Below are positions 302 to 22,818 of a stretch of DNA of 45,075 bases, in pieces. The translations under genes were made by a program, and so were the position numbers. The notes below the pieces were generated by a model, which was not told the DNA's origin, did no database searches, and worked only from the letters and a program-made list of their open reading frames with translations. How positions within the stretch are numbered: the stretch's first letter is position 1; the number at the start of each line of letters is the position of its first letter. Source of the stretch: a virus (taxonomy: Duplodnaviria > Heunggongvirae > Uroviricota > Caudoviricetes); the IMG/VR virus record IMGVR_UViG_3300033121_001869, positions 1-45,075 of that record; one strand, 5' to 3'.

Positions 302-1213
302 TTAATTTGATATTGTCTTTTTCTTTCTCTTCAAAAGAGTTTCTTCTCGACTAACAATAAATTCTAATTTTGGATTGGGATTCTCTATTGTATATGGAAT
401 CACAAGATTTAATCTCTGATTAACTATATCAATATATTCTTGGTTAATATCGAATCCAATATACTTACGATTGTTCATTTTAGCCATCTTTGGAGTGGTT
501 CCACTACCAACCATTGGATCAAAAACAATATCACCTTCTTTAGTCCAAGATAAAATATGATCCTCTGCCAAACTTTCAGGAAAAATTGCTGGATGTTTAT
601 AGGCTATCTTATCTTTGGATGAAAAACCTGCACCATTATTAATGTACCAAACATTATATCGACTACCATATTGACCAACAACAAAAGAGCTATCTGTTTG
701 TTTAAGTTCACCATTAACTGTTCTGATACTTCTTTTACCATAAGGTGAAGATCCGGCCCACTTATTGGGTTTATCTTTAATTATATTAACTGTATTTGGC
801 TTATTACCTTTCAACAAAATAAACATATATTCAAATACTTGTGAATATCTAGATGCTTCTGGAAAAGGAGCACCATTTTTATGATAAATCATAGTATCAT
901 ATAATTTAAATCCGATCTCTTGAAATTTTAAAGCCTGTCGAAATGAATTACCTGTTTCTCCACCATTAACAATTTGATCATTAACAACCCAAACAACTAT
1001 ACCACCATCTTTAGTAATTCGATATAATTCATTTGCCATTTCAACAAATGGGAAACTAAAATGATCATCAAATTTGATATCTTTATTAATTTTACTATTA
1101 TATGTTCTTAGATTATCATAAGGTGGGCTTGTAACTGTCAGATCAATTGAATTTGAATCTATTGATTTCATTAAATTAATTGAATCACCACATAGAATTT
1201 GATTTATATCCAT
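302..1213 (-). CDS. Site-specific DNA methyltransferase, N4-C/N6-A beta class
   Basis: Catalytic TSPPY motif near the N-terminus, HPAIFP, and SAM-binding FDPMVGSGTT near the C-terminus. Confidence 0.92.
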   Translation of the reverse strand: MDINQILCGDSINLMKSIDSNSIDLTVTSPPYDNLRTYNSKINKDIKFDDHFSFPFVEMANELYRITKDGGIVVWVVNDQIVNGGETGNSFRQALKFQEIGFKLYDTMIYHKNGAPFPEASRYSQVFEYMFILLKGNKPNTVNIIKDKPNKWAGSSPYGKRSIRTVNGELKQTDSSFVVGQYGSRYNVWYINNGAGFSSKDKIAYKHPAIFPESLAEDHILSWTKEGDIVFDPMVGSGTTPKMAKMNNRKYIGFDINQEYIDIVNQRLNLVIPYTIENPNPKLEFIVSREETLLKRKKKTISN

Positions 1214-1242
1214 AAGTAATATACTTATAAATTAAAAATGGT

Positions 1243-2133
1243 TTAAGGTTGAATTATAATATTCACACTATTTTTTTTAAAAATAGTTTTAACACTCAAT
1301 TTTGGATTGATAGCCTTGAGATGAGCTTTAGCCTCTATTATAGATGACAGCACATTTATCAATTCATCATTGACATCTAAATGTGCTTCATCGAAGTTTA
1401 TATGAACACTAGAATATTTTACATAACTCGATTTAGATTTTGTTTGACTAAAAACATTAACACCGTTAATGTTGAATACAATTGATATAGAATTCCCATT
1501 ATCGGAAATATCATAAGAATCACTAATATCCATTAATGTGCTAAAACACTCAATTATATCTTCTTTATCACTTAAAAAATTCTTTCTTTGGGTTTCTATT
1601 TCCTTTTGTATTTTTATTTTATTATCCAATTCTTGTTTCTTTATATCAAGATTTGAGGAACAATTATTTAAATAAGTAACCAAATTTTCTATGTTAGAAT
1701 TTATTATCGATATCAATTGTTCTTTTGATTTAATAATTGTATTGTGTGAAATTTCTAAACTCATAAATGTCTTATATACATCAACAACACCAATATTTGA
1801 TTGATAAAACGATCCAATTAATTGAGGATAAAAATTTTTAATAAAATTAAAATTTATTTTACACCATTGCATTTTAGATGAATTGATATTAAATGAGATA
1901 ATAATAGTGACACCATTAATATTATTATTAATCCTTGTTATTTCCGGAATTTTTTCAAGTGGAAGTATAAACTTTAAAATAATTGAATTATCTTCCTTTT
2001 GAATTTCTGATTTGTAATCTGTAAAATGCGAAATAGATGATTTAATTATCTTAAAAAGTTTATCATAGTTATGCTTTTTAACTAAATTGAATTTATCACA
2101 ATTAATTTCTTCATATTTTTTTAGATGATTCAC
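1243..2133 (-). CDS. Hypothetical protein with N-terminal MNHLKKYEE tag (candidate virion-internal protein)
   Basis: 296 aa ORF, GTG start, shared N-terminal tag, TAATATATA 4 nt upstream. Confidence 0.7.
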   Translation of the reverse strand: MNHLKKYEEINCDKFNLVKKHNYDKLFKIIKSSISHFTDYKSEIQKEDNSIILKFILPLEKIPEITRINNNINGVTIIISFNINSSKMQWCKINFNFIKNFYPQLIGSFYQSNIGVVDVYKTFMSLEISHNTIIKSKEQLISIINSNIENLVTYLNNCSSNLDIKKQELDNKIKIQKEIETQRKNFLSDKEDIIECFSTLMDISDSYDISDNGNSISIVFNINGVNVFSQTKSKSSYVKYSSVHINFDEAHLDVNDELINVLSSIIEAKAHLKAINPKLSVKTIFKKNSVNIIIQP

Positions 2134-2137
2134 TAAG

Positions 2138-2177
2138 TATATATTAATTAAACTTTAGCAATTATCAATAATATAAT
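2138..2177. promoter_or_regulatory. Divergent promoter pair: TAATATATA (minus, 2138-2146) and AAAC-N18-TATAAT (plus, 2150-2177)
   Basis: Both motifs recur at fixed geometry upstream of several other genes in the window. Confidence 0.6.
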
Positions 2178-2195
2178 TGTGATAAATTAAATTAA

Positions 2196-4211
2196 ATGTT
2201 AAGAAATCTTTTACTATTAATAATAATTCTACTCTTCTACAAGTCTTATTCTCAAATCGATACAATACCAATTATTGATTCTACATTTCAAATTGAAAAT
2301 GTTCAAGTTATAGGAATAAGACCAACAAAAAATGAACCTATAACACTAACAACACTGAAAGTAGATTCATTAAATTATGTCCCAGCTTCAGATCCATTTT
2401 TTCTAATTAATCGATACACTCCAAATATATTGTCACAATCAGATAATGGTAGTACTTATGGATATTCTTACATTAAAATAAGAGGTTTGGATCAGACCAG
2501 AATAAACTTCACACTTAATGGAATACCGCTAAATGAAATGGAAGATCAGGGAATATATTTCTCGAATATGCCAAATTTTATCAATAATATTGATCAAATT
2601 CAAGTACAAAGAGGAATTGGGACATCAAAATATGGAACAACATCATTTGCTGGATCTGTAAATATGGAAACCAAATCTCCATTATCAAAAGAATTAAAAT
2701 TTGGACTGGGAGGTGGATCTTATGGTACAATATTTGGGAATATTGGATATTCATCCGGATTGTTAAGAAATAAATTTGCACTATCCTCTAATATTTCATA
2801 CTTAGAATCTAATGGATTTCGATATCACTCCGGAACTGATGGATTAAATTATTTTGGACAATTTGCATATTTCGGTAAGAAAAATATAGTAAAGGTGTAT
2901 GAATTTACTGGGATGTCAAGAAATGGTATGTCTTGGTTAGCACCAAGCGATTCTATTCTAAATTTTGATATTAGAATAAACCTAAACGGAGAAGATGAAA
3001 AAGATAAATTTAATCAAAATTTTGGAGCGATAAATTGGATAAATTATGGAATAGAAAATTTAAAATTTAATTCATCAGTCTATATTAATAATATTAATGG
3101 TAAATATACATCATATTTAGATCCAACACTGCTAGGTAGATTCGGATTGAATTCATATCAGGCTGGAGTGATGTCTAATATAGTTTATGAAAAAAACTCT
3201 ATATCCATAAATAGTGGAATCAATTATAACTATTATCAAAGAAAGCATACATTATCGGATAATTTGTACCCTGATGATTTATTTTATACAAATAAAGGAT
3301 ATAAACAAGATTTTATAACATTTGTAAAATTCAATAAATCATTTAAAGATTTAAATCTGTTCGTTGACTTACAATATAGATATGTCAATTTTAACTATGA
3401 TAAAAAAATGTCACATGGATGGCATTTTATTAATCCAAAAGTTGGATTAAAATACAACAAGAAAGATTGGAATATTTACACTTCAATTGCCATGACAGGA
3501 CGAGAAGTAACTAGAACAGATTTATTAAATGGATATGATAATGTTGATGTTATAAATAAAACAACATTAACTTCTTTTGAAGATACATTTAATGTAAACT
3601 TTAAACCAGAAAGATGTTATGATTTGGAAGTCGGTGGATTTTTTACAAAAAAAGGTTTCACATTCTCCGGTAATGTTTATGTAATGTACTTCAATAATGA
3701 AAGAATATCAACTGGTGATATAAATTATATTGGACTATTACTAAAGTCACCAACTGAAAAGTCTATCAGAACTGGATTAGAAATAGACATGAATTATAAA
3801 TATAAAGGACTTTCAGTCGCAACAAATCTATCAGTATCTAAAAATAAAATATACAAATGGTCAGATAAAAATGGAAATAATTATTTGAATGTATCTCCAT
3901 TTGGTAGTCCAAGATTTACAATGAATAATACGATTGAGTATTCTCATAAATATTTTTATATAAATTTAAATGGTATGTTTGTATCTAAAATGTATTTGGA
4001 TAATACACAAAACGAAAAATTTGTAACACCATCATATTATTTATTAAATTCAAATGTCGGTGTTAAATTTAAATCTCTATGCATTTCAATGATTGTTAAT
4101 AATATCATAAACACTAAATACTATTTGCCCGGTGGTCTATATATGAATAGACCCGCCTTTTATCCTGGAGCTTTAAGAAACTATTTAATCAATGTTCAAG
4201 TTACTTTATGA
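2196..4211 (+). CDS. TonB-dependent outer-membrane receptor (Bacteroidota vitamin-receptor type)
   Basis: Signal peptide; plug motifs IRGLDQTRINFTLNGIPLN and IQVQRGIGTSKYG..SFAGSVN; amphipathic beta-barrel; C-terminal strand RNYLINVQVTL. Confidence 0.92.
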   Translation: MLRNLLLLIIILLFYKSYSQIDTIPIIDSTFQIENVQVIGIRPTKNEPITLTTLKVDSLNYVPASDPFFLINRYTPNILSQSDNGSTYGYSYIKIRGLDQTRINFTLNGIPLNEMEDQGIYFSNMPNFINNIDQIQVQRGIGTSKYGTTSFAGSVNMETKSPLSKELKFGLGGGSYGTIFGNIGYSSGLLRNKFALSSNISYLESNGFRYHSGTDGLNYFGQFAYFGKKNIVKVYEFTGMSRNGMSWLAPSDSILNFDIRINLNGEDEKDKFNQNFGAINWINYGIENLKFNSSVYINNINGKYTSYLDPTLLGRFGLNSYQAGVMSNIVYEKNSISINSGINYNYYQRKHTLSDNLYPDDLFYTNKGYKQDFITFVKFNKSFKDLNLFVDLQYRYVNFNYDKKMSHGWHFINPKVGLKYNKKDWNIYTSIAMTGREVTRTDLLNGYDNVDVINKTTLTSFEDTFNVNFKPERCYDLEVGGFFTKKGFTFSGNVYVMYFNNERISTGDINYIGLLLKSPTEKSIRTGLEIDMNYKYKGLSVATNLSVSKNKIYKWSDKNGNNYLNVSPFGSPRFTMNNTIEYSHKYFYINLNGMFVSKMYLDNTQNEKFVTPSYYLLNSNVGVKFKSLCISMIVNNIINTKYYLPGGLYMNRPAFYPGALRNYLINVQVTL

Positions 4212-4738
4212 TAGAAATAATAGCAGTAATATTCAGTTTAGTTTCTGTTTGGCTAACAGCTATTAGAAATATTTGGTGTTGGATAATTGGCATCATTGGT
4301 ATAATTGCCTATTCATTTATTTTTTATGATAAATGTGATTGGGGTAATTTTGGATTACAATTTATCTTTTTACTACAATCAATCTGGGCATGGATTAATT
4401 GGAATAAAGCTGAAAAAGAAATAACAAAACTACCTAAAGGATATTTCACAAAAATATCATTATCTATTTTATCACTATCAATTCTGATATATCTGATTAG
4501 TTACTCACTTAATGGCAATTTATTATTACTTGATTCCATAACATCATCTATAAGTTTATTCGCAATGTTTTTACTTGGATACAATAAAATAGAAGCTTGG
4601 ATATTATGGATTATTGCAGATATTTTATATATCTTATTCTTTATGTTGAATGGTCTTTACCTTTCATCATTTTTATATTTTATATTTTTATTGTTATCAG
4701 TATATGGATTTTTTAATTGGAAAAATAAAATAATATGA
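4208..4738 (+). CDS. pnuC: PnuC-family vitamin (nicotinamide riboside/thiamine) inner-membrane transporter
   Basis: Highly hydrophobic 176 aa; WCWIIG and IEAWILWIIAD motifs; ATGA overlap with the TonB receptor gene. Confidence 0.88.
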   Translation: MIEIIAVIFSLVSVWLTAIRNIWCWIIGIIGIIAYSFIFYDKCDWGNFGLQFIFLLQSIWAWINWNKAEKEITKLPKGYFTKISLSILSLSILIYLISYSLNGNLLLLDSITSSISLFAMFLLGYNKIEAWILWIIADILYILFFMLNGLYLSSFLYFIFLLLSVYGFFNWKNKII

Positions 4739-4860
4739 AAGAAGAATTACTAGAATTTATAAGATGGTATTGGGCAGAGGTCAATGGAAAGCCCTATGAT
4801 ATCAGAGGAGAAGAATTGATTGAAATTTACTTAAAAGAAAAAAATAAAAACTATGATTGA
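4735..4860 (+). CDS. Small hypothetical protein (41 aa, MKEELLEFIRWYW...)
   Basis: Translated by hand; ATGA overlap with pnuC; fills the gap to the next gene. Confidence 0.55.
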   Translation: MKEELLEFIRWYWAEVNGKPYDIRGEELIEIYLKEKNKNYD

Positions 4861-5191
4861 TAATGGTGTATTAAGAGTTGGTGGAAACTCTATAAAAGTA
4901 TGGATAGGTGAAAAAATCGAAAAATTTGGAACCTTTTTCGCTGAATGGGGCACAAAAATAATAGTAAATAATAAGCCTAAAATTGTTACAAATCCATCCG
5001 CAAAATTATATAATCCATTCACATTGATTGTTAGTTTCACTGTTGATACAAACCAAAAATTTCAGGTTGTTTTACAAGGAGATTATAAAGAAAAATATAA
5101 AGAGTGTGAGGATGGACAGATAAATCTAACCGAAACAGAAATGTTTATGGTTATAAATTCAAGTCGAGGTAAGTGGTTTAAAAAGGAATAA
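4853..5191 (+). CDS. Hypothetical protein
   Basis: 112 aa ORF tightly packed in the operon. Confidence 0.65.
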   Translation: MIDNGVLRVGGNSIKVWIGEKIEKFGTFFAEWGTKIIVNNKPKIVTNPSAKLYNPFTLIVSFTVDTNQKFQVVLQGDYKEKYKECEDGQINLTETEMFMVINSSRGKWFKKE

Positions 5192-5644
5192 ATGATAGTA
5201 TTGTTTAATAAATTTGAGGGAAAATGTCCTTATTACCTAACAGGATTAGCATCTACTGTTAATGCTTTACCAGGAATTGAAGTTCGTCATGCCTTTCATC
5301 ATATTGGTCAAGGACCAACAATACTTTTTATCGTCAATAATACTAATAAAGGTCTTTTTTTTCTAACTAGATGTATTGATCGTAGGTATTTTAGGTGGGG
5401 AAATTCTTGGAATATAACACTATCTGTCGGTGATCAATATATCAATCAAAAACTACCGATAGTCTATGATCTATCAACAATATCGAGTGAGTATGAAAAA
5501 TCAATTGGTGATTTAATTGATAATATCAATTACCACTTTCATCATGAAAATTTCATGAATATGTATGAATTAGATAAAAATGATTTTAAATGTATTGATA
5601 CCATAATTGAAAATAGAGATGATAAAATAAATAGTATTCTATGA
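5192..5644 (+). CDS. Hypothetical protein with C-terminal RDDKINSIL tag
   Basis: 150 aa ORF abutting its neighbours; shared C-terminal motif. Confidence 0.7.
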   Translation: MIVLFNKFEGKCPYYLTGLASTVNALPGIEVRHAFHHIGQGPTILFIVNNTNKGLFFLTRCIDRRYFRWGNSWNITLSVGDQYINQKLPIVYDLSTISSEYEKSIGDLIDNINYHFHHENFMNMYELDKNDFKCIDTIIENRDDKINSIL

Positions 5645-6148
5645 AGTCAGCTACAATATTTGGAGGAGGTAGTAAGGATAGAACAACGAAAGAATATATC
5701 GAAACTGAAAAAATCGGTGAATTATTAGCACAATCTGAATATAAAGTAAAAAGTGGTGGATATTATGGTATAATGGAAGCCATATCAAAGGTTCAACTGA
5801 AGCTGGTGGAATATCTATCGGTTTTACATGTAAAACATTTCCATCAACAAAAGGAAATACATTCTTATCCAAAAGAATTGTTTGTGATGATATCTATGAT
5901 AGATTAATTAAGAAGTCTGATTGAATCTAGTGATTTATTCATAGTTCAAAGGGGGTGGAATTGGAACCCTCTCTGAATTGTTTCTAACCATGGATGTAAT
6001 TAGAAAATTAAAAAACAAACCAAAAATTTTATTAATAGGTGAATTTTGGAAAAAAATAATGTTAGAAATATCACCTCTACTAAACAAGGATGAAAATGAT
6101 ATCTATATTATTATAGAAGATTTTAATGAAATTAAAAAATATTTATAA
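5641..6148 (+). pseudogene. LOG/SLOG-family nucleotide phosphoribohydrolase-like gene with three frameshifts
   Basis: TIFGG..SGGYYGIMEAISK, then other frames give GSTEAGGISIG..DIYDRL, RSLIESSDLFIVQ and GGIGTLSELFL..PKILLIGEFWK. Shifts near 5790, 5905 and 5952. Confidence 0.8.
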
Positions 6149-6364
6149 ATGATATATCCTGAACCAAACAAACTATATAGACACTATAAAGGAGGACTTT
6201 ATAAGGTATTGTTTCTATCCAAGAATACAGAAACACAAGAAATATTAGTCAATTATCAATCCTTGCACTTTGGTTCCTATCATTCAAGACCACTAGACAG
6301 TTGGAATGAATCGGTAATAATCGATGGTAAAGAAGAAAAAAGATTTCAATTAGAAAATGTATAA
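6149..6364 (+). CDS. DUF1653-like small protein
   Basis: YRHYKGGLYKV..TETQE..VNYQSL..RP..RF signature. Confidence 0.8.
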   Translation: MIYPEPNKLYRHYKGGLYKVLFLSKNTETQEILVNYQSLHFGSYHSRPLDSWNESVIIDGKEEKRFQLENV

Positions 6365-7394
6365 GAACTCATTAGTACTCGGAAAATTCTATTGTGTTCA
6401 TTTAGGACATTTATTTTTAATTGACACCGCAATATCCGAGTCAGAACAAGTTAATGTAATAATAACCCATAATAAGTCACAGTTTATTCCAGGTGAATTT
6501 AGATATAATGTTTTAAATTATATCTATAAAGATAATCCAAAAGTCACAATACACTTAGTAAGTGATGATGGATTACCCCAACATGACAATGAGTGCTCAA
6601 CACTAGATGAGTTTTATTCGTATTGGGTTCCGTTGGTGTATAATACGGTATCAAATATTGACGCCGTTTTTACATCTGAAGACTATGGTGATGATTTTGC
6701 CAAATATTTGGGAGTTGAACATAGATTAGTTGATAAAGAAAGAAAGAAATATCCAATTTCTGGGACAAAAGCTAGAACTAACCCAATAGAATACTGGGAT
6801 TTTATGCCAAACGAAATGAAGAAATTCTTTGTTAAAAGAGTTGCATTGATGGGACCAGAATCGGTTGGCAAATCAACATTAACACAGAAATTATCAGAAT
6901 ATTACCAAACCAACTATGTTGAAGAATATGGAAGAACAGTATTTGAAAATAATGGGAATAAAATATCTATTGATGACTTTATCCCAATATCGATTGGAAG
7001 GCAATTAATTGAGGATGAATTGATTGTAGATTCAAATAAGATAATATTTTGTGATACTGAGGATATAACAACGTATCTATTTAGTAAAATGTTTTTTCCG
7101 AATGATTATAATAAAGTTGAGAATTTTTTTACTACTTCTTTCAATAGTAAACCAAAATATGATCTATATATTCTTCTAAAACCAGATTGTGATGGTGTAC
7201 AAGATGGAACAAGACAATTTTTAGATGAAAGGTGGGAACATTACATATCTATCAAAAATGAATTGATAAGTCAAAATTGTCGATTTATTGAAATAGAGGG
7301 TGATTGGGAATTTAGATTTAAAAAATCTATTGAGGTTATTGATAATAATATATTGAATGAATTAATATATACTAAAAAATTAATCAACCAATGA
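6357..7394 (+). CDS. nadR: NadR-type bifunctional NMN adenylyltransferase / ribosylnicotinamide kinase (no HTH repressor domain)
   Basis: GKF..HLGH nucleotidyltransferase motif, FTSEDYG, ISGT; Walker A GPESVGKST, EYGR, FCDT, YDLYILL, DGTR. Confidence 0.92.
   Translation: MYKNSLVLGKFYCVHLGHLFLIDTAISESEQVNVIITHNKSQFIPGEFRYNVLNYIYKDNPKVTIHLVSDDGLPQHDNECSTLDEFYSYWVPLVYNTVSNIDAVFTSEDYGDDFAKYLGVEHRLVDKERKKYPISGTKARTNPIEYWDFMPNEMKKFFVKRVALMGPESVGKSTLTQKLSEYYQTNYVEEYGRTVFENNGNKISIDDFIPISIGRQLIEDELIVDSNKIIFCDTEDITTYLFSKMFFPNDYNKVENFFTTSFNSKPKYDLYILLKPDCDGVQDGTRQFLDERWEHYISIKNELISQNCRFIEIEGDWEFRFKKSIEVIDNNILNELIYTKKLINQ
7363..7371 (+). promoter_or_regulatory. Putative late promoter TAATATATA
   Basis: Recurrent motif 19 nt upstream of the 7391 start. 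Confidence 0.5.
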
Positions 7395-7663
7395 AAAGTA
7401 TTAATGAAAGTCAAGGATCAGATCTATTATTAAATATGTATAAATTTTATTCAAAAAGATATGCAAGTAATCCATCTGAAATTGAAAAGAAGTTCAATGC
7501 CGCAGTTGAGGATCTAATAACAACCGGAGACATTAAAAACGTTGAATATATTGACTTTTGTGTAACTCATGATATTGAACCAAAAATAAAAGAAAAAAAA
7601 CAATCATCATCTTCATCTTCTTCAGATCCTTGCGGACACAGTGTCTCATATCGTGGATGTTAA
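7391..7663 (+). CDS. Small protein with poly-Ser linker and Cys-containing tail (candidate radical-SAM substrate)
   Basis: MKSINES... ending KKQSSSSSSSDPCGHSVSYRGC. Confidence 0.7.
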   Translation: MKSINESQGSDLLLNMYKFYSKRYASNPSEIEKKFNAAVEDLITTGDIKNVEYIDFCVTHDIEPKIKEKKQSSSSSSSDPCGHSVSYRGC

Positions 7664-7677
7664 AAAATATCTAATTA

Positions 7678-8379
7678 ATGAATAATAAACTCTATTGCTT
7701 AAAATGCCCATATACACTTGAAATAAGATATATTGGAATAACAAATAAAGATTTAAAGGGTAGATTATCTAGACATATACATGAATCAAAATATAGAGAC
7801 AACCACAAATCTAATTGGATAAGAAAACTTATGTCTGATAATAAAATTCCAATTATTGAGCTAATTATTGATGGATTAGAATATGAAGAATCTCTTAATA
7901 TAGAAATTGAATATATTAAAAAATATAGGGATATGGGATTTAATCTAGTAAATATATCAGATGGTGGAGATTTTAATCCAAGTAAATTACAGTCAGTTAG
8001 AGATAAAATTAGTAAAAAATTAACTGGAATTAAGAGATCTGATGAAACGAAACAAAAATTGAGAATCTCTCATATTGGAATAAGTAAAGGAGATAAAAAT
8101 CCATTTTTTAATAAAAAACATACGGATATTTCAAGAAAAAAAATGTCCAATTCAGTGAAATTATCTTTTAATAATCCTGATATGATCAGAAAATTAAGTT
8201 CTTTAAAAGATGCCAAAAAAATACCTATAATACAACTCGATATGAATGATAATTTCATTAGGGAGTGGGAAAGTGTATCAATGATTAAAAGAGAATTAAA
8301 ATTCGAAAGAAAAACAATTAAACTTGTATGTCAAGGTAAATATAAACAGGCATATGGATTTAAATGGAAATTTAAATAA
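7678..8379 (+). CDS. GIY-YIG homing endonuclease with NUMOD3 and NUMOD1-like domains
   Basis: LYCL..IRYIGIT..RL..H; RSDETKQKLR, NPFFNKKHT; QLDMNDNFIREWES..QAYGFKWK. Confidence 0.88.
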   Translation: MNNKLYCLKCPYTLEIRYIGITNKDLKGRLSRHIHESKYRDNHKSNWIRKLMSDNKIPIIELIIDGLEYEESLNIEIEYIKKYRDMGFNLVNISDGGDFNPSKLQSVRDKISKKLTGIKRSDETKQKLRISHIGISKGDKNPFFNKKHTDISRKKMSNSVKLSFNNPDMIRKLSSLKDAKKIPIIQLDMNDNFIREWESVSMIKRELKFERKTIKLVCQGKYKQAYGFKWKFK

Positions 8380-8383
8380 TAAA

Positions 8384-9280
8384 ATGGAATTAATTAATTT
8401 ATTTAATACTGATGTGAAACTCAAAACACATTATTGTTCTTTTTTTGGTCAAAAAAATGAGCAAGTTGAGGATCCTTATATAAATCTATATTTAAGAACA
8501 AAATATTGCAATGCAAAATGTCCATTTTGTACATATCATTCAGATGCATCAAAATGGAATCATAAAAAATATATTGAAGTTTTAAAAGAAATATCTTCCA
8601 AAATAAAAATAAGGAAAATAGCATTTTCTGGCGGAGAACCAACCCTTTTTTGGGAAAACTTTAAAAATATGGTATATACTGCGAAAGAATACTCACCCAT
8701 GTCAGAATTTTCAATTAACACGGATGGATTCAAAATAGATAGATTTTTTTCAGACCCAATTTATAAAATATTTGATTTCATACATCTGAGCAGACATCAC
8801 TATGATGATAAAATAAATGATACTATTTTTAAAACCAAAACCCCTACATCGGATGAGATATTAGAAATTTCAAAGCTTCAAACTCATGAACATCAATTTC
8901 AATTTAGATGTAATCTAATCAAAGGATTTATTGATAATAAGGAAGAGGTATTTAAATATCTAGATTGGTCTAATTCTGTTGGTGTTAATGATATTGGATT
9001 AGTCTCATTAATGCCTATAAACGAATATTCAAAGGAAAATTTTATCTATTTTCATATTAAAGAATTAATTGGTGATAATTTTCTATTAACTAAGAAACAA
9101 GAGAGGCATGGAGGTGGATGTGAGTGTTTTAATTATATTTATATGCCTAATGAAGAATCTTTTAGAAGACCTATTAGAGTCTATCATAAAAATACATATG
9201 CTCCTACTGATATACAGGAAACTTTGGTTTTTGATGGTGAGAATGTTAGATTAGGATTTGAAGGTCCAATTATTTTTTAA
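8384..9280 (+). CDS. Radical SAM enzyme
   Basis: CNAKCPFC (CX3CX2C), FSGGEP, INTDG, LSRHHY; C-terminal GGGCEC. Likely start ATG 8384. Confidence 0.92.
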   Translation: MELINLFNTDVKLKTHYCSFFGQKNEQVEDPYINLYLRTKYCNAKCPFCTYHSDASKWNHKKYIEVLKEISSKIKIRKIAFSGGEPTLFWENFKNMVYTAKEYSPMSEFSINTDGFKIDRFFSDPIYKIFDFIHLSRHHYDDKINDTIFKTKTPTSDEILEISKLQTHEHQFQFRCNLIKGFIDNKEEVFKYLDWSNSVGVNDIGLVSLMPINEYSKENFIYFHIKELIGDNFLLTKKQERHGGGCECFNYIYMPNEESFRRPIRVYHKNTYAPTDIQETLVFDGENVRLGFEGPIIF

Positions 9281-9369
9281 TCATATCCCAGTTAATATAG
9301 GATTATAACCTTAACAATTCTCTAATAATTTAGAATCACTGAAATGATTTAATCTCCACTTTCTTACCG

Positions 9370-21804: not shown

Positions 21805-21852
21805 TTTATTATATATTTGAAAACAATTCATTCTATTTTAGATAGAATTAGT

Positions 21853-22818
21853 ATGATTATAATAACAGGAGCAGCTGGTTTCATCGGTAGTTATATAGCT
21901 GGATATTTTAACAAAAAAGGATTTGATAATTTAGTCTTAGTTGATGATTTTTCAAATGAATCAAAACAAATGAATTTCATAAATAAAAAATGTCAATGTT
22001 TCATTGATAGAGAAATATTATTTGATTTTATAGATTCAAACCACAAAGAAATTGATTTTATATTTCATCTTGGAGCCAGAACTGACACATCAGAATTTAA
22101 TATTGATATATTAAATAAATTAAATACTGACTATACTAAAAAGTTATGGTCACTTTGTACAAAATATCAAATACCAATAATCTATGCTTCATCTGCCGCA
22201 ACATATGGTGATGGGTCTCTTGGATTCAATGATGATGATAAGATCACCTATCAGTTAAATCCACTAAATCCTTATGGAAATTCTAAACATCTATTCGACA
22301 AATGGGCACTAAAACATAAATATGAACCTCCTTACTGGGTGGGATTAAAATTCTTTAATGTTTTTGGACCCAATGAATATCATAAAAGTAGGATGGCATC
22401 TGTTCCATTTCATATATTTAATACTTTAAAATCTGGAAATAAAGTTAAAATATTTAAAAGTCATAAGTCAGAATATAAAGATGGGAGTCAAATGAGAGAT
22501 TTTATATATGTCAAAGACATTGCAAAAGTTTTTGAGTTCTTATTCGAAAATCGAATTAAAAATGGAATTTATAACTTAGGATCCGGAAAAGCTAGAACAT
22601 TTATTGATTTAGCTAAAGCTTGTCACAATTCATTTAATGTGGATTTTGATATAGAATTTATAGATATACCAAAAGATATAAGAGATTCATATCAGTATTA
22701 TACACAAGCAAATATGGATAAACTAATCAACCAAGGATATAAAATTCCCTTCACATCAATTGAAGATGGAATTGAAGAATATTATAAAGAATATTTGTTA
22801 GATGGAAAAAGATTTTAA
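21853..22818 (+). CDS. hldD: ADP-L-glycero-D-manno-heptose 6-epimerase
   Basis: MIIITGAAGFIGS, YASSAATYG, PLNPYGNSK, FFNVFGPNEYHK.RMAS, YQYYTQA. Confidence 0.93.
   Translation: MIIITGAAGFIGSYIAGYFNKKGFDNLVLVDDFSNESKQMNFINKKCQCFIDREILFDFIDSNHKEIDFIFHLGARTDTSEFNIDILNKLNTDYTKKLWSLCTKYQIPIIYASSAATYGDGSLGFNDDDKITYQLNPLNPYGNSKHLFDKWALKHKYEPPYWVGLKFFNVFGPNEYHKSRMASVPFHIFNTLKSGNKVKIFKSHKSEYKDGSQMRDFIYVKDIAKVFEFLFENRIKNGIYNLGSGKARTFIDLAKACHNSFNVDFDIEFIDIPKDIRDSYQYYTQANMDKLINQGYKIPFTSIEDGIEEYYKEYLLDGKRF

Follow-up and report, generated by a model that had tools for sequence, protein, structure and literature searches.

A TonB-dependent receptor gene heads a probable NAD-precursor import and salvage module in a jumbo phage of Bacteroidota

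Gene content and organization of the locus

The virus record IMGVR_UViG_3300033121_001869 of the IMG/VR database is a linear sequence of 182,437 bp with a CheckV completeness of 79%. The window analyzed here comprises its first 45 kb (45,075 nucleotides) and contains, at positions 2196-7394, a run of genes examined here as a candidate module for the import and salvage of precursors of nicotinamide adenine dinucleotide (NAD). Nine open reading frames (ORFs), all on the plus strand, make up this run: a TonB-dependent outer-membrane receptor of 671 aa (2196-4211), a Pnu-family inner-membrane channel of the PnuC type with 176 aa (4208-4738), three small ORFs named o41 (4735-4860), o112 (4853-5191) and o150 (5192-5644), two fragments of a broken LOG/SLOG gene (5641-5907 and 5978-6148), a DUF1653 protein (6149-6364), and a NadR of 345 aa without a helix-turn-helix (HTH) domain (6357-7394). 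The last of these combines nicotinamide mononucleotide (NMN) adenylyltransferase and ribosylnicotinamide kinase functions. An initial annotation, made from the sequence before any database search, had listed this same gene content, which the family scans matched, and had described the run as gapless. The ORFs are indeed co-directional, their stops and starts overlapping by 4-8 nt or abutting, with a single exception of 70 nt (5908-5977) in the interior of the broken LOG gene.

Contigs and loci compared with the window carry L-numbers below; L148 is a sister contig from another metagenome, L153, L152 and L008-L012 are phage contigs, and L015, L074 and L145 are bacterial.

The TonB-dependent receptor

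The identity of the first gene is established by its Plug domain (PF07715, E-value 1.5e-11, residues 46-153), its homologs and an AlphaFold2 model. Its hydrophobic N-terminus forms a signal peptide ending in SYS, directly followed by Gln in the window protein and its relatives. A segment resembling a TonB box by sequence alone, IENVQVIG, lies at residues 33-40 and is kept as xxVQV(I/V)G among the relatives. The Pfam barrel family PF00593 gave no match in the window receptor at E<=0.01; its homologs do match, and the receptor aligns end to end with hundreds of proteins of 650-700 aa that carry this domain. Full-length homologs share 36-95% identity. Built from an alignment of 25 homologs, the AlphaFold2 model (predicted local distance difference test score, pLDDT, 85.5; predicted template modeling score, pTM, 0.85) contains a full plug and barrel, with continuous strands across residues 153-670. 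The receptor is intact and full-length at all 33 IMG/VR loci of its family, in the phage genomes LR745206 and LR756502, and in its close relatives.

Structural comparison with Foldseek placed PqqU (9c4o), YncD (6v81) and FecA as the best matches, with template modeling (TM) scores of 0.78-0.82, and the model superposes on PqqU, YncD, FecA, FhuA and BtuB with TM scores of 0.67-0.82. PqqU/YncD (PDB 9C4O, 6V81; TM 0.79-0.82) belongs to the TonB-dependent receptors and takes up a small organic cofactor, pyrroloquinoline quinone (PQQ), rather than an iron chelate. It differs from the phage protein in ligand and gene context and is only 15% identical to it, and the match informs on the predicted fold of the receptor, not on its specificity.

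The PnuC channel and NadR

The start codon of the second gene overlaps the receptor stop (ATGA). The encoded channel covers the whole PF04973 profile (1.3e-39), scores 69.4 bits against TIGR01528 (cut-off 42.45) and matches phrog_1880. It has six to seven hydrophobic segments, and its W-x-x-W and C-terminal YG..NW motifs align with those of N. mucosa PnuC (4QTN). Its place in the Pnu tree is among NadR-linked proteins from phages and Bacteroidota (SH-aLRT branch support 86), the PnuT of the thiamine pyrophosphate (TPP) riboswitch locus L145 falling outside this cluster and the deep nodes being weak. Such short proteins resolve less well than the receptors, and the specificity of the phage Pnu for nicotinamide riboside is argued mainly from its partner NadR.

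Four Bacteroidota genomes (L141-L144) encode a second Pnu paralog beside a stand-alone AAA_28 kinase; two of them also have a ThiE-like gene, without a riboswitch. This is a different, unstudied salvage pair.

NadR closes the run. It matches TIGR01526 at 2.6e-62 with 211 bits, which is under the 341-bit cut-off of that model, and also matches AAA_28. Among solved structures, the matches are E. coli 8X7F (1e-38), H. influenzae 1LW7 (2e-38) and 9X6F (3e-37), the enzyme Bas30_86 of the phage pathway NARP3; the last match spans residues 1-306 and includes all catalytic motifs. The adenylyltransferase motifs GKFYCVHLGH and ISGTKAR and the kinase motifs GPESVGKST and FCDTED align to 8X7F. Its alignment to the full-length model NF005988 (411 positions) covers positions 64-408, and the enterobacterial HTH repressor domain is absent. 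In the NadR tree it groups among Bacteroidota-linked NadR proteins.

Conserved association of receptor, pnuC and nadR

The three genes recur together well beyond the window. Receptor, PnuC and NadR are contiguous in two curated phage genomes of 634-642 kb (LR745206, LR756502), and the same gene order is found in three IMG/VR contigs and in L148, L152 and L153, often with DUF1653 ahead of NadR. A profile scan of IMG/VR recovered 33 loci of the receptor family, every one with nadR downstream within 5 kb and mostly within 2 kb; pnuC was detectable at 25 of the 33. For bacteria, one genome per prokaryotic species (GTDB) was scanned, which yielded 380 receptor relatives, and gene neighborhoods were taken from the best 80. 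Both pnuC and nadR lie within 3 kb of the receptor at 52 of these 80 loci. In Bacteroidota this holds for 14 of 16 loci, collinear as in the phage, and in Gemmatimonadota (within L026-L094) for 35 of 61, usually as a divergent pnuC-nadR pair. The association is far beyond chance, and the receptor does co-occur with nadR elsewhere, as the initial annotation presupposed.

Wherever the family is found, it is embedded in NAD and ADP-ribose metabolism, as the phage and bacterial neighborhoods indicate. In Bacteroidia metagenome-assembled genomes (MAGs), the gene order is NrtR, PrsA (phosphoribosyl pyrophosphate synthetase), NADAR, Tpt1, phosphoesterase, NDT (nucleoside deoxyribosyltransferase-like), NadV, Macro, receptor, PnuC, NadR. 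Other phage versions of the module include Macro, nucleoside deoxyribosyltransferase-like and MazG-NMNAT genes. The bacterial trio, for instance in MAG GCA_016787785.1 (L015), has receptors of the same family with 33-38% identity to the phage protein and, in Bacteroidota, the same gene order and overlaps. It differs in being preceded by NrtR, PrsA, NadV, Macro, NADAR and Tpt1, none of which was found in the phage record (tblastn with the L015 proteins; PF04095), and in lacking the DUF1653 gene and small ORFs added in the phage. The literature search found no paper on this bacterial trio.

In a phylogeny of 58 receptors, the phage proteins form at least three clades, with bacterial clades lying among them. 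The same main groupings reappear in the NadR tree and, less firmly, in the Pnu tree, and the agreement of the three trees fits transfer of the trio as a block. On this sequence evidence, the module looks to have been exchanged as a unit between phages and bacteria rather than invented by phages. A second group of phages (L107-L109, L114, L116, L118, L119, L121, L124-L127) has the order receptor-NadR-PnuC, often with a radical SAM gene downstream of it. The Pnu proteins of this group cluster with those of T5-like and Bacillus phages (99% support), so that the receptor has been combined with Pnu genes of different origin, which makes the module a mosaic.

One MAG contig labelled Hydrocarboniphaga (Pseudomonadota; L024) carries a trio nearly identical to that of the Flavobacterium MAG L023, which probably reflects a binning error, not transfer.

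Separation from thiamine uptake systems

The thiamine operon of Bacteroides, OMthi-PnuT-TPK (Costliow and Degnan 2017, PMC5613172), and the bacterial locus L145 likewise place a Pnu gene after a TonB-dependent receptor gene, and the thiamine receptor is a distant homolog of the window receptor (E-value 4e-57). The phage genes could accordingly be read as an uptake system of the OMthi-PnuT type, for thiamine or another vitamin, but we consider this very improbable. Both systems comprise a TonB-dependent receptor, a Pnu channel and a trapping kinase, and they share the logic of outer-membrane capture, facilitated diffusion and metabolic trapping. The likeness ends at the features diagnostic of the Bacteroides operon, its TPP riboswitch and its pyrophosphokinase, both absent here. 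A scan of positions 1200-8000 against Rfam gave no RNA family at E<=1, riboswitches included, and the same tool detected the TPP riboswitch of L145 at 71 bits, which served as a positive control. Profile scans of the operon ORFs revealed no pyrophosphokinase, and NadR occupies the operon instead. These two absences had already been noted in the initial annotation, and both hold.

The receptor itself points the same way. Both systems occur in one Dysgonomonas genome, where L145 has a TPP riboswitch ahead of genes for a 740-aa receptor and PnuT, and L074 is a receptor-PnuC-NadR trio. The window receptor is nearer to the NadR-linked paralog (33% identity, 326 bits) than to the riboswitch-linked one (26% identity, 195 bits), and in the tree the thiamine receptor is a long-branch outgroup to all 57 members of the family. 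With respect to the thiamine clades, the separation is therefore clear for the receptor and weaker for the Pnu protein. With nadR beside the receptor at every one of the 33 phage loci, a thiamine or riboswitch interpretation was rejected and is largely refuted by the empty Rfam scan, the presence of NadR in the operon and the receptor tree.

Phage origin and host

The source is, with high confidence, a phage, and we place it among the jumbo phages of Bacteroidota as a relative of the Mahaphage clade. The G+C content of the phage sequence is 27.7%. Profile scans of the window identified homing endonucleases of the GIY-YIG/NUMOD3 and LAGLIDADG types and a DNA methylase, and PHROG scans of the record outside the window identified a T4 RnlA-like RNA ligase, an SbcC-like protein and an NAD-dependent DNA ligase. 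A search of 50,697 phage records with two large proteins from the record (588 and 2312 aa) gave as sole matches LR745206, LR756502, LR756501/3, LR756504 and LR756500, which are genomes of 462-735 kb. The largest among the matched huge-phage genomes make up the Mahaphage clade, with predicted replication in Bacteroidetes (Al-Shayeb et al. 2020, PMC7162821). Gln directly after the signal peptide, as in the receptor, is the Q-rule of Bacteroidetes (PMC5837995). The host phylum is assigned to Bacteroidota because the receptor obeys this rule and the Mahaphage relatives are predicted to replicate there.

No capsid, portal or terminase gene appeared among the 20 large ORFs of the record in two PHROG scans, in which few families matched, and the phage identity therefore rests on the other evidence. 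Missing hallmark matches are usual for such divergent phages, and the record is incomplete. A bacterial contig is ruled out by the status of the record in IMG/VR and by large proteins that match huge phages only; together with the PHROG matches and the homing endonucleases, these features identify the contig as phage and not bacterial chromosome.

Proposed function and its alternatives

The genes at 2196-7394 probably form a module for NAD-precursor import and salvage, a reading drawn from their identities and neighborhoods. According to this proposal, the receptor would be made during infection, exported by the host Sec and barrel assembly machinery (BAM) into the outer membrane, and energized by host TonB-ExbBD; dependence on the host is expected because the phage record contains no match to TonB_C or ExbB. 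Nicotinamide riboside, or possibly NMN or NAD+, would be the pyridine nucleoside or nucleotide that it captures outside the cell and concentrates in the periplasm. Facilitated diffusion through PnuC would then carry nicotinamide riboside over the inner membrane, NadR would trap it as NMN with its kinase domain, and the adenylyltransferase domain would convert NMN to NAD+. The expected outcome is more NAD+ in the infected cell, offsetting NAD-depleting defenses as the two-gene NARP3 does, and this NAD+ may also feed phage NAD consumers such as the NAD-dependent DNA ligase. Because no NadV was found, import is the only visible route to new NAD+ in this record. Within this scheme, we infer what the receptor carries, which way the flux runs, that host TonB is needed, and what physiological purpose is served.

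Phages are known to rebuild NAD+ from compounds inside the cell by the pathways NARP1 and NARP2, and the initial annotation had presented the present route as distinct from both. Its inner part has since been published as NARP3 (Yan et al., Sci Adv, August 2026, PMC13464706), in which Bas30_87 of Escherichia phage TrudiRoth, a PnuC-like transporter, brings in nicotinamide riboside and Bas30_86, an HTH-less NadR, converts it to NAD+, jointly defeating Sir2-HerA (PDB 9X6H/9X6F). A phage PnuC with an HTH-less NadR had been flagged as a likely pathway in 2024 (bioRxiv 10.1101/2024.02.11.579819), and the pair has been surveyed in gut jumbo phages (PMC11662467). None of these three papers, nor a survey of NAD genes in viruses (PMC9503650), mentions a TonB or outer-membrane step. 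Our literature search found no paper joining PnuC, NadR, TonB-dependent and phage; TonB-dependent, nicotinamide riboside and PnuC occurred together only in one paper, on Haemophilus. The new element is thus the outer-membrane receptor alone, the inner pair having become a described route. What does stand of the import-and-salvage claim is a phage contig with three intact main genes and a receptor that is tied to pnuC and nadR and is not of the thiamine type.

The window and NARP3 share a Pnu channel and an HTH-less bifunctional NadR, both intact, phage-encoded on one strand, here in a single overlapping gene run, and the expected chemistry from nicotinamide riboside through NMN to NAD+ is the same, in the window as predicted from genes alone. 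In contrast to NARP3, a TonB-dependent receptor heads the operon, the host belongs to Bacteroidota rather than Enterobacteriaceae, and six small ORFs (1.6 kb) separate pnuC from nadR. The window Pnu also falls in a Bacteroidota-linked clade, outside that of the T5-like phage PnuC proteins; in the trees, the T5-like Salmonella phage S147 stood in for TrudiRoth.

A dedicated external route for pyridine nucleotides is also present in Haemophilus influenzae, where NAD uptake proceeds through the porin OmpP2, the periplasmic enzymes NadN and e(P4), PnuC and NadR. The inner steps of PnuC and NadR are alike, but that route relies on a porin and periplasmic nucleotidases, has no TonB-dependent receptor and is not phage-borne. 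By analogy, the phage receptor might import NAD+ or NMN, which host periplasmic nucleotidases would trim to the riboside for PnuC. Several points would suit such a substrate: the usual ligands of TonB-dependent receptors are too big or too rare for uptake through porins, NAD+ has a mass of ~660 Da, PqqU, the closest solved structure, imports a cofactor, and the bacterial operons center on NAD and ADP-ribose turnover. We nevertheless consider this rather unlikely, since neither a periplasmic NAD pyrophosphatase nor such a 5'-nucleotidase is apparent among the operon genes, of which o41, o112 and o150 have no signal peptides. Ligand size is moreover no argument, as Bacteroidota use a TonB-dependent receptor for the small molecule thiamine (PMC5613172).

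The purpose of the pathway can be read in a second way. With the same chemistry, the module may provide metabolic supply for the NAD-dependent ligase and sugar enzymes rather than counter-defense, the NadR adenylyltransferase recycling the NMN released by the ligase; this is a real possibility, if not the one we favor. An NAD-dependent DNA ligase consumes NAD+ and releases NMN, and one is encoded in the same record (154545-156413; phrog_3869, 1.9e-114), as is an NAD-dependent epimerase/dehydratase (window positions 21817-22818). The bacterial counterparts of the module are housekeeping salvage operons, and a survey of jumbo phages found NAD synthesis genes together with NAD-consuming enzymes, with pnuC in 68 of 174 (PMC11662467). 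A defensive purpose is favored instead by the ability of the two-gene version to rescue phages from Sir2-HerA (PMC13464706), and by genes found with the module in relatives (Macro, NADAR-type and LOG), which belong to families predicted to process defense-derived ADP-ribose products (PMC9503650). Supply and counter-defense are compatible, and the benefit may be either or both. Two Nudix genes also occur in the record, at 166742-166978 and 169314-169514.

An unlikely alternative holds that only PnuC and NadR matter, the receptor being a passenger of an acquired host operon or having a surface role such as superinfection exclusion or receptor masking. The trio has clearly been swapped between bacteria and phages as a block, the phage receptor ends without the usual terminal aromatic residue, and the Enterobacteriaceae phages of the NARP3 paper are given with PnuC and NadR only; in the T5-like Salmonella phage S147, checked here, we likewise found the pair only. 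A passenger would be expected to decay, as the LOG gene of the window did, yet all 33 IMG/VR loci, two complete huge phages and close relatives at 36-95% identity have kept the receptor full-length and intact. Phage receptors form several old clades, and at 8 of the 33 IMG/VR loci the receptor and NadR are kept while Pnu is undetected. No second receptor copy was found in the record by tblastn.

Several observations weigh against import and salvage of NAD precursors as proposed here. The substrate of the receptor is deduced from gene neighborhoods. Porins could admit a molecule as small as nicotinamide riboside, so it is not obvious why a TonB-dependent receptor would be needed. The association of the genes is incomplete, as Pnu escaped detection at those 8 phage loci and 28 of the 80 best bacterial loci, mostly of Gemmatimonadota (26 of 61) and some on short contigs, have no pnuC and nadR nearby. 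In the window itself, 1.6 kb of unrelated small genes intervene between pnuC and nadR. The Pnu tree is weak at depth, pairwise Pnu identities of 26-31% do not separate nicotinamide riboside-type proteins from thiamine-context paralogs, and the window Pnu lies outside the clade of the tested NARP3 transporter type (T5-like phage PnuC). The window receptor also lacks the C-terminal aromatic residue of barrel assembly, ending in ...NVQVTL. Alignment shows Leu or Ile at this position in close phage relatives and Phe in bacterial members; the aromatic residue is a typical, not an absolute, trait of TonB-dependent transporters, and the phage ending may represent a relaxed or different barrel-assembly signal.

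More tentatively, the receptor family may comprise the first TonB-dependent transporters for pyridine nucleosides or nucleotides, having moved repeatedly with pnuC and nadR between Bacteroidota/Gemmatimonadota and huge phages. The phage could thereby scavenge very dilute NAD precursors and outrun NAD-depleting immunity through what would amount to a three-compartment NARP3. If import and salvage do occur as proposed, a virus would re-equip the envelope of its host during infection and tap external vitamin pools, the family, whose bacterial members have never been studied, would be a candidate for the first TonB-dependent transporters of NAD precursors, and huge phages of Bacteroidota would gain a testable mechanism of counter-defense or supply. 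The family itself is compact, and its link to pnuC and nadR is sharp.

Small genes between pnuC and nadR

Between the window and L153, amino-acid identity is 95% for o41, 85% for o112, 75% for the receptor, 61% for PnuC and 79% for NadR, and o41 (41 aa) has the same size and place in L148 and L153. Judged by this conservation, o41 and o112 are evidently real genes under constraint. The 112-aa protein o112 belongs to a small phage family with 52 cluster representatives among 1.84 billion proteins and gave no Pfam, PHROG or NCBIfam match near cut-off, only a weak one to the NCBIfam sarcinarray model (17 bits vs 45). Its distant members occur in phage contexts without NAD genes; a role as accessory factor of the NAD module was rejected on this ground, and o112 is a probable passenger gene. 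The 150-aa protein o150 is poorly conserved, with 46% identity to the ORF of 156 aa that occupies its position in L153, and has neither a family match nor a hydrophobic segment. Neither signal peptides nor membrane segments were detected in o41, o112 or o150.

The DUF1653 protein (71 aa; PF07866, 6.7e-17) has a single solved relative, the uncharacterized protein 3BE3 (2.5e-5), and the literature search on this family gave nothing useful. Its gene lies between pnuC and nadR in L010, L011, L012, L148 and L153 and is absent from L008, L009 and the bacterial loci, so that it accompanies NadR in this phage subclade only. LR745206 and LR756502 do without DUF1653 and the small ORFs, which are therefore probably dispensable for the pathway: o41, o112, o150 and the DUF1653 protein are mostly passengers.

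The LOG gene (5641-6148) is represented in the window by an 88-aa N-terminal ORF and a 56-aa C-terminal ORF, and PF18306 and TIGR00730 match its N-terminal half only. The sister contig L148, 96.3% identical to window positions 318-9326 and carrying the same operon, has an intact LOG gene of 167 aa (L148:11461-11964) that abuts DUF1653, matches PF18306 and PF03641 and retains the motifs GGxxGxM and GGxGTxxE. The window copy is disrupted at three points, where an A run has lost 1 nt, a duplication of 4 nt (TTAA) introduces the stop at 5905-5907, and a G run has gained 1 nt. These indels may reflect genuine decay or an error of assembly, and in the former case the gene appears inactivated in the window genome. 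LOG-clade SLOG proteins are rare in phages and are predicted to cleave ribosyl-base bonds in nucleotides or ADP-ribose-derived signals (PMC9503650). The intact LOG-type enzyme of sister phages may destroy ADP-ribose-derived defense signals.

Flanking region and downstream genes

Upstream of the receptor gene, an AT-rich divergent intergenic region of 62 nt (2134-2195) without an Rfam match is the presumed promoter region. Promoter-like (sigma-70-like) sites were not enriched over shuffled sequences, and no promoter was assigned. Terminator-like sites numbered four, where 1.5 +/- 1.3 were expected, too weak an excess for assignment. The motif TAATATATA occurs 12 times within window positions 2138-40987 against 5.9 expected, a count reached in 2 of 100 shuffles. 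One copy (7363-7371) lies inside the end of nadR, just upstream of the gene for a 90-aa protein, and none is present on the plus strand ahead of the receptor gene.

This 90-aa protein (7391-7663), which ends in a Ser run and DPCGHSVSYRGC, precedes a radical SAM enzyme of ~297 aa (8384-9280). A protein of 90-97 aa always stands ahead of the radical SAM gene, and the two form a fixed pair in many huge-phage contigs, L148 and L150-L153 included. The enzyme shows 48-84% identity across 290 metagenome proteins, with an invariant second Cys pair (C246, C248), and its structural model (pLDDT 90) gave only generic matches to MoaA, SuiB and viperin. The radical SAM gene stands downstream of the NAD module in two different gene orders, and in L150 and L151 the pair lies far from any NAD gene. 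The radical SAM gene was therefore rejected as a required part of the module, and the pair is a separate unit.

A GIY-YIG/NUMOD3 homing endonuclease gene (7678-8379) is inserted between the two members of the pair in the window and in L148 and is absent from this position in L153, L008, L010 and L012. Two paralogs of this endonuclease occur elsewhere in the record, near 58281-59057 and 70252-71067.

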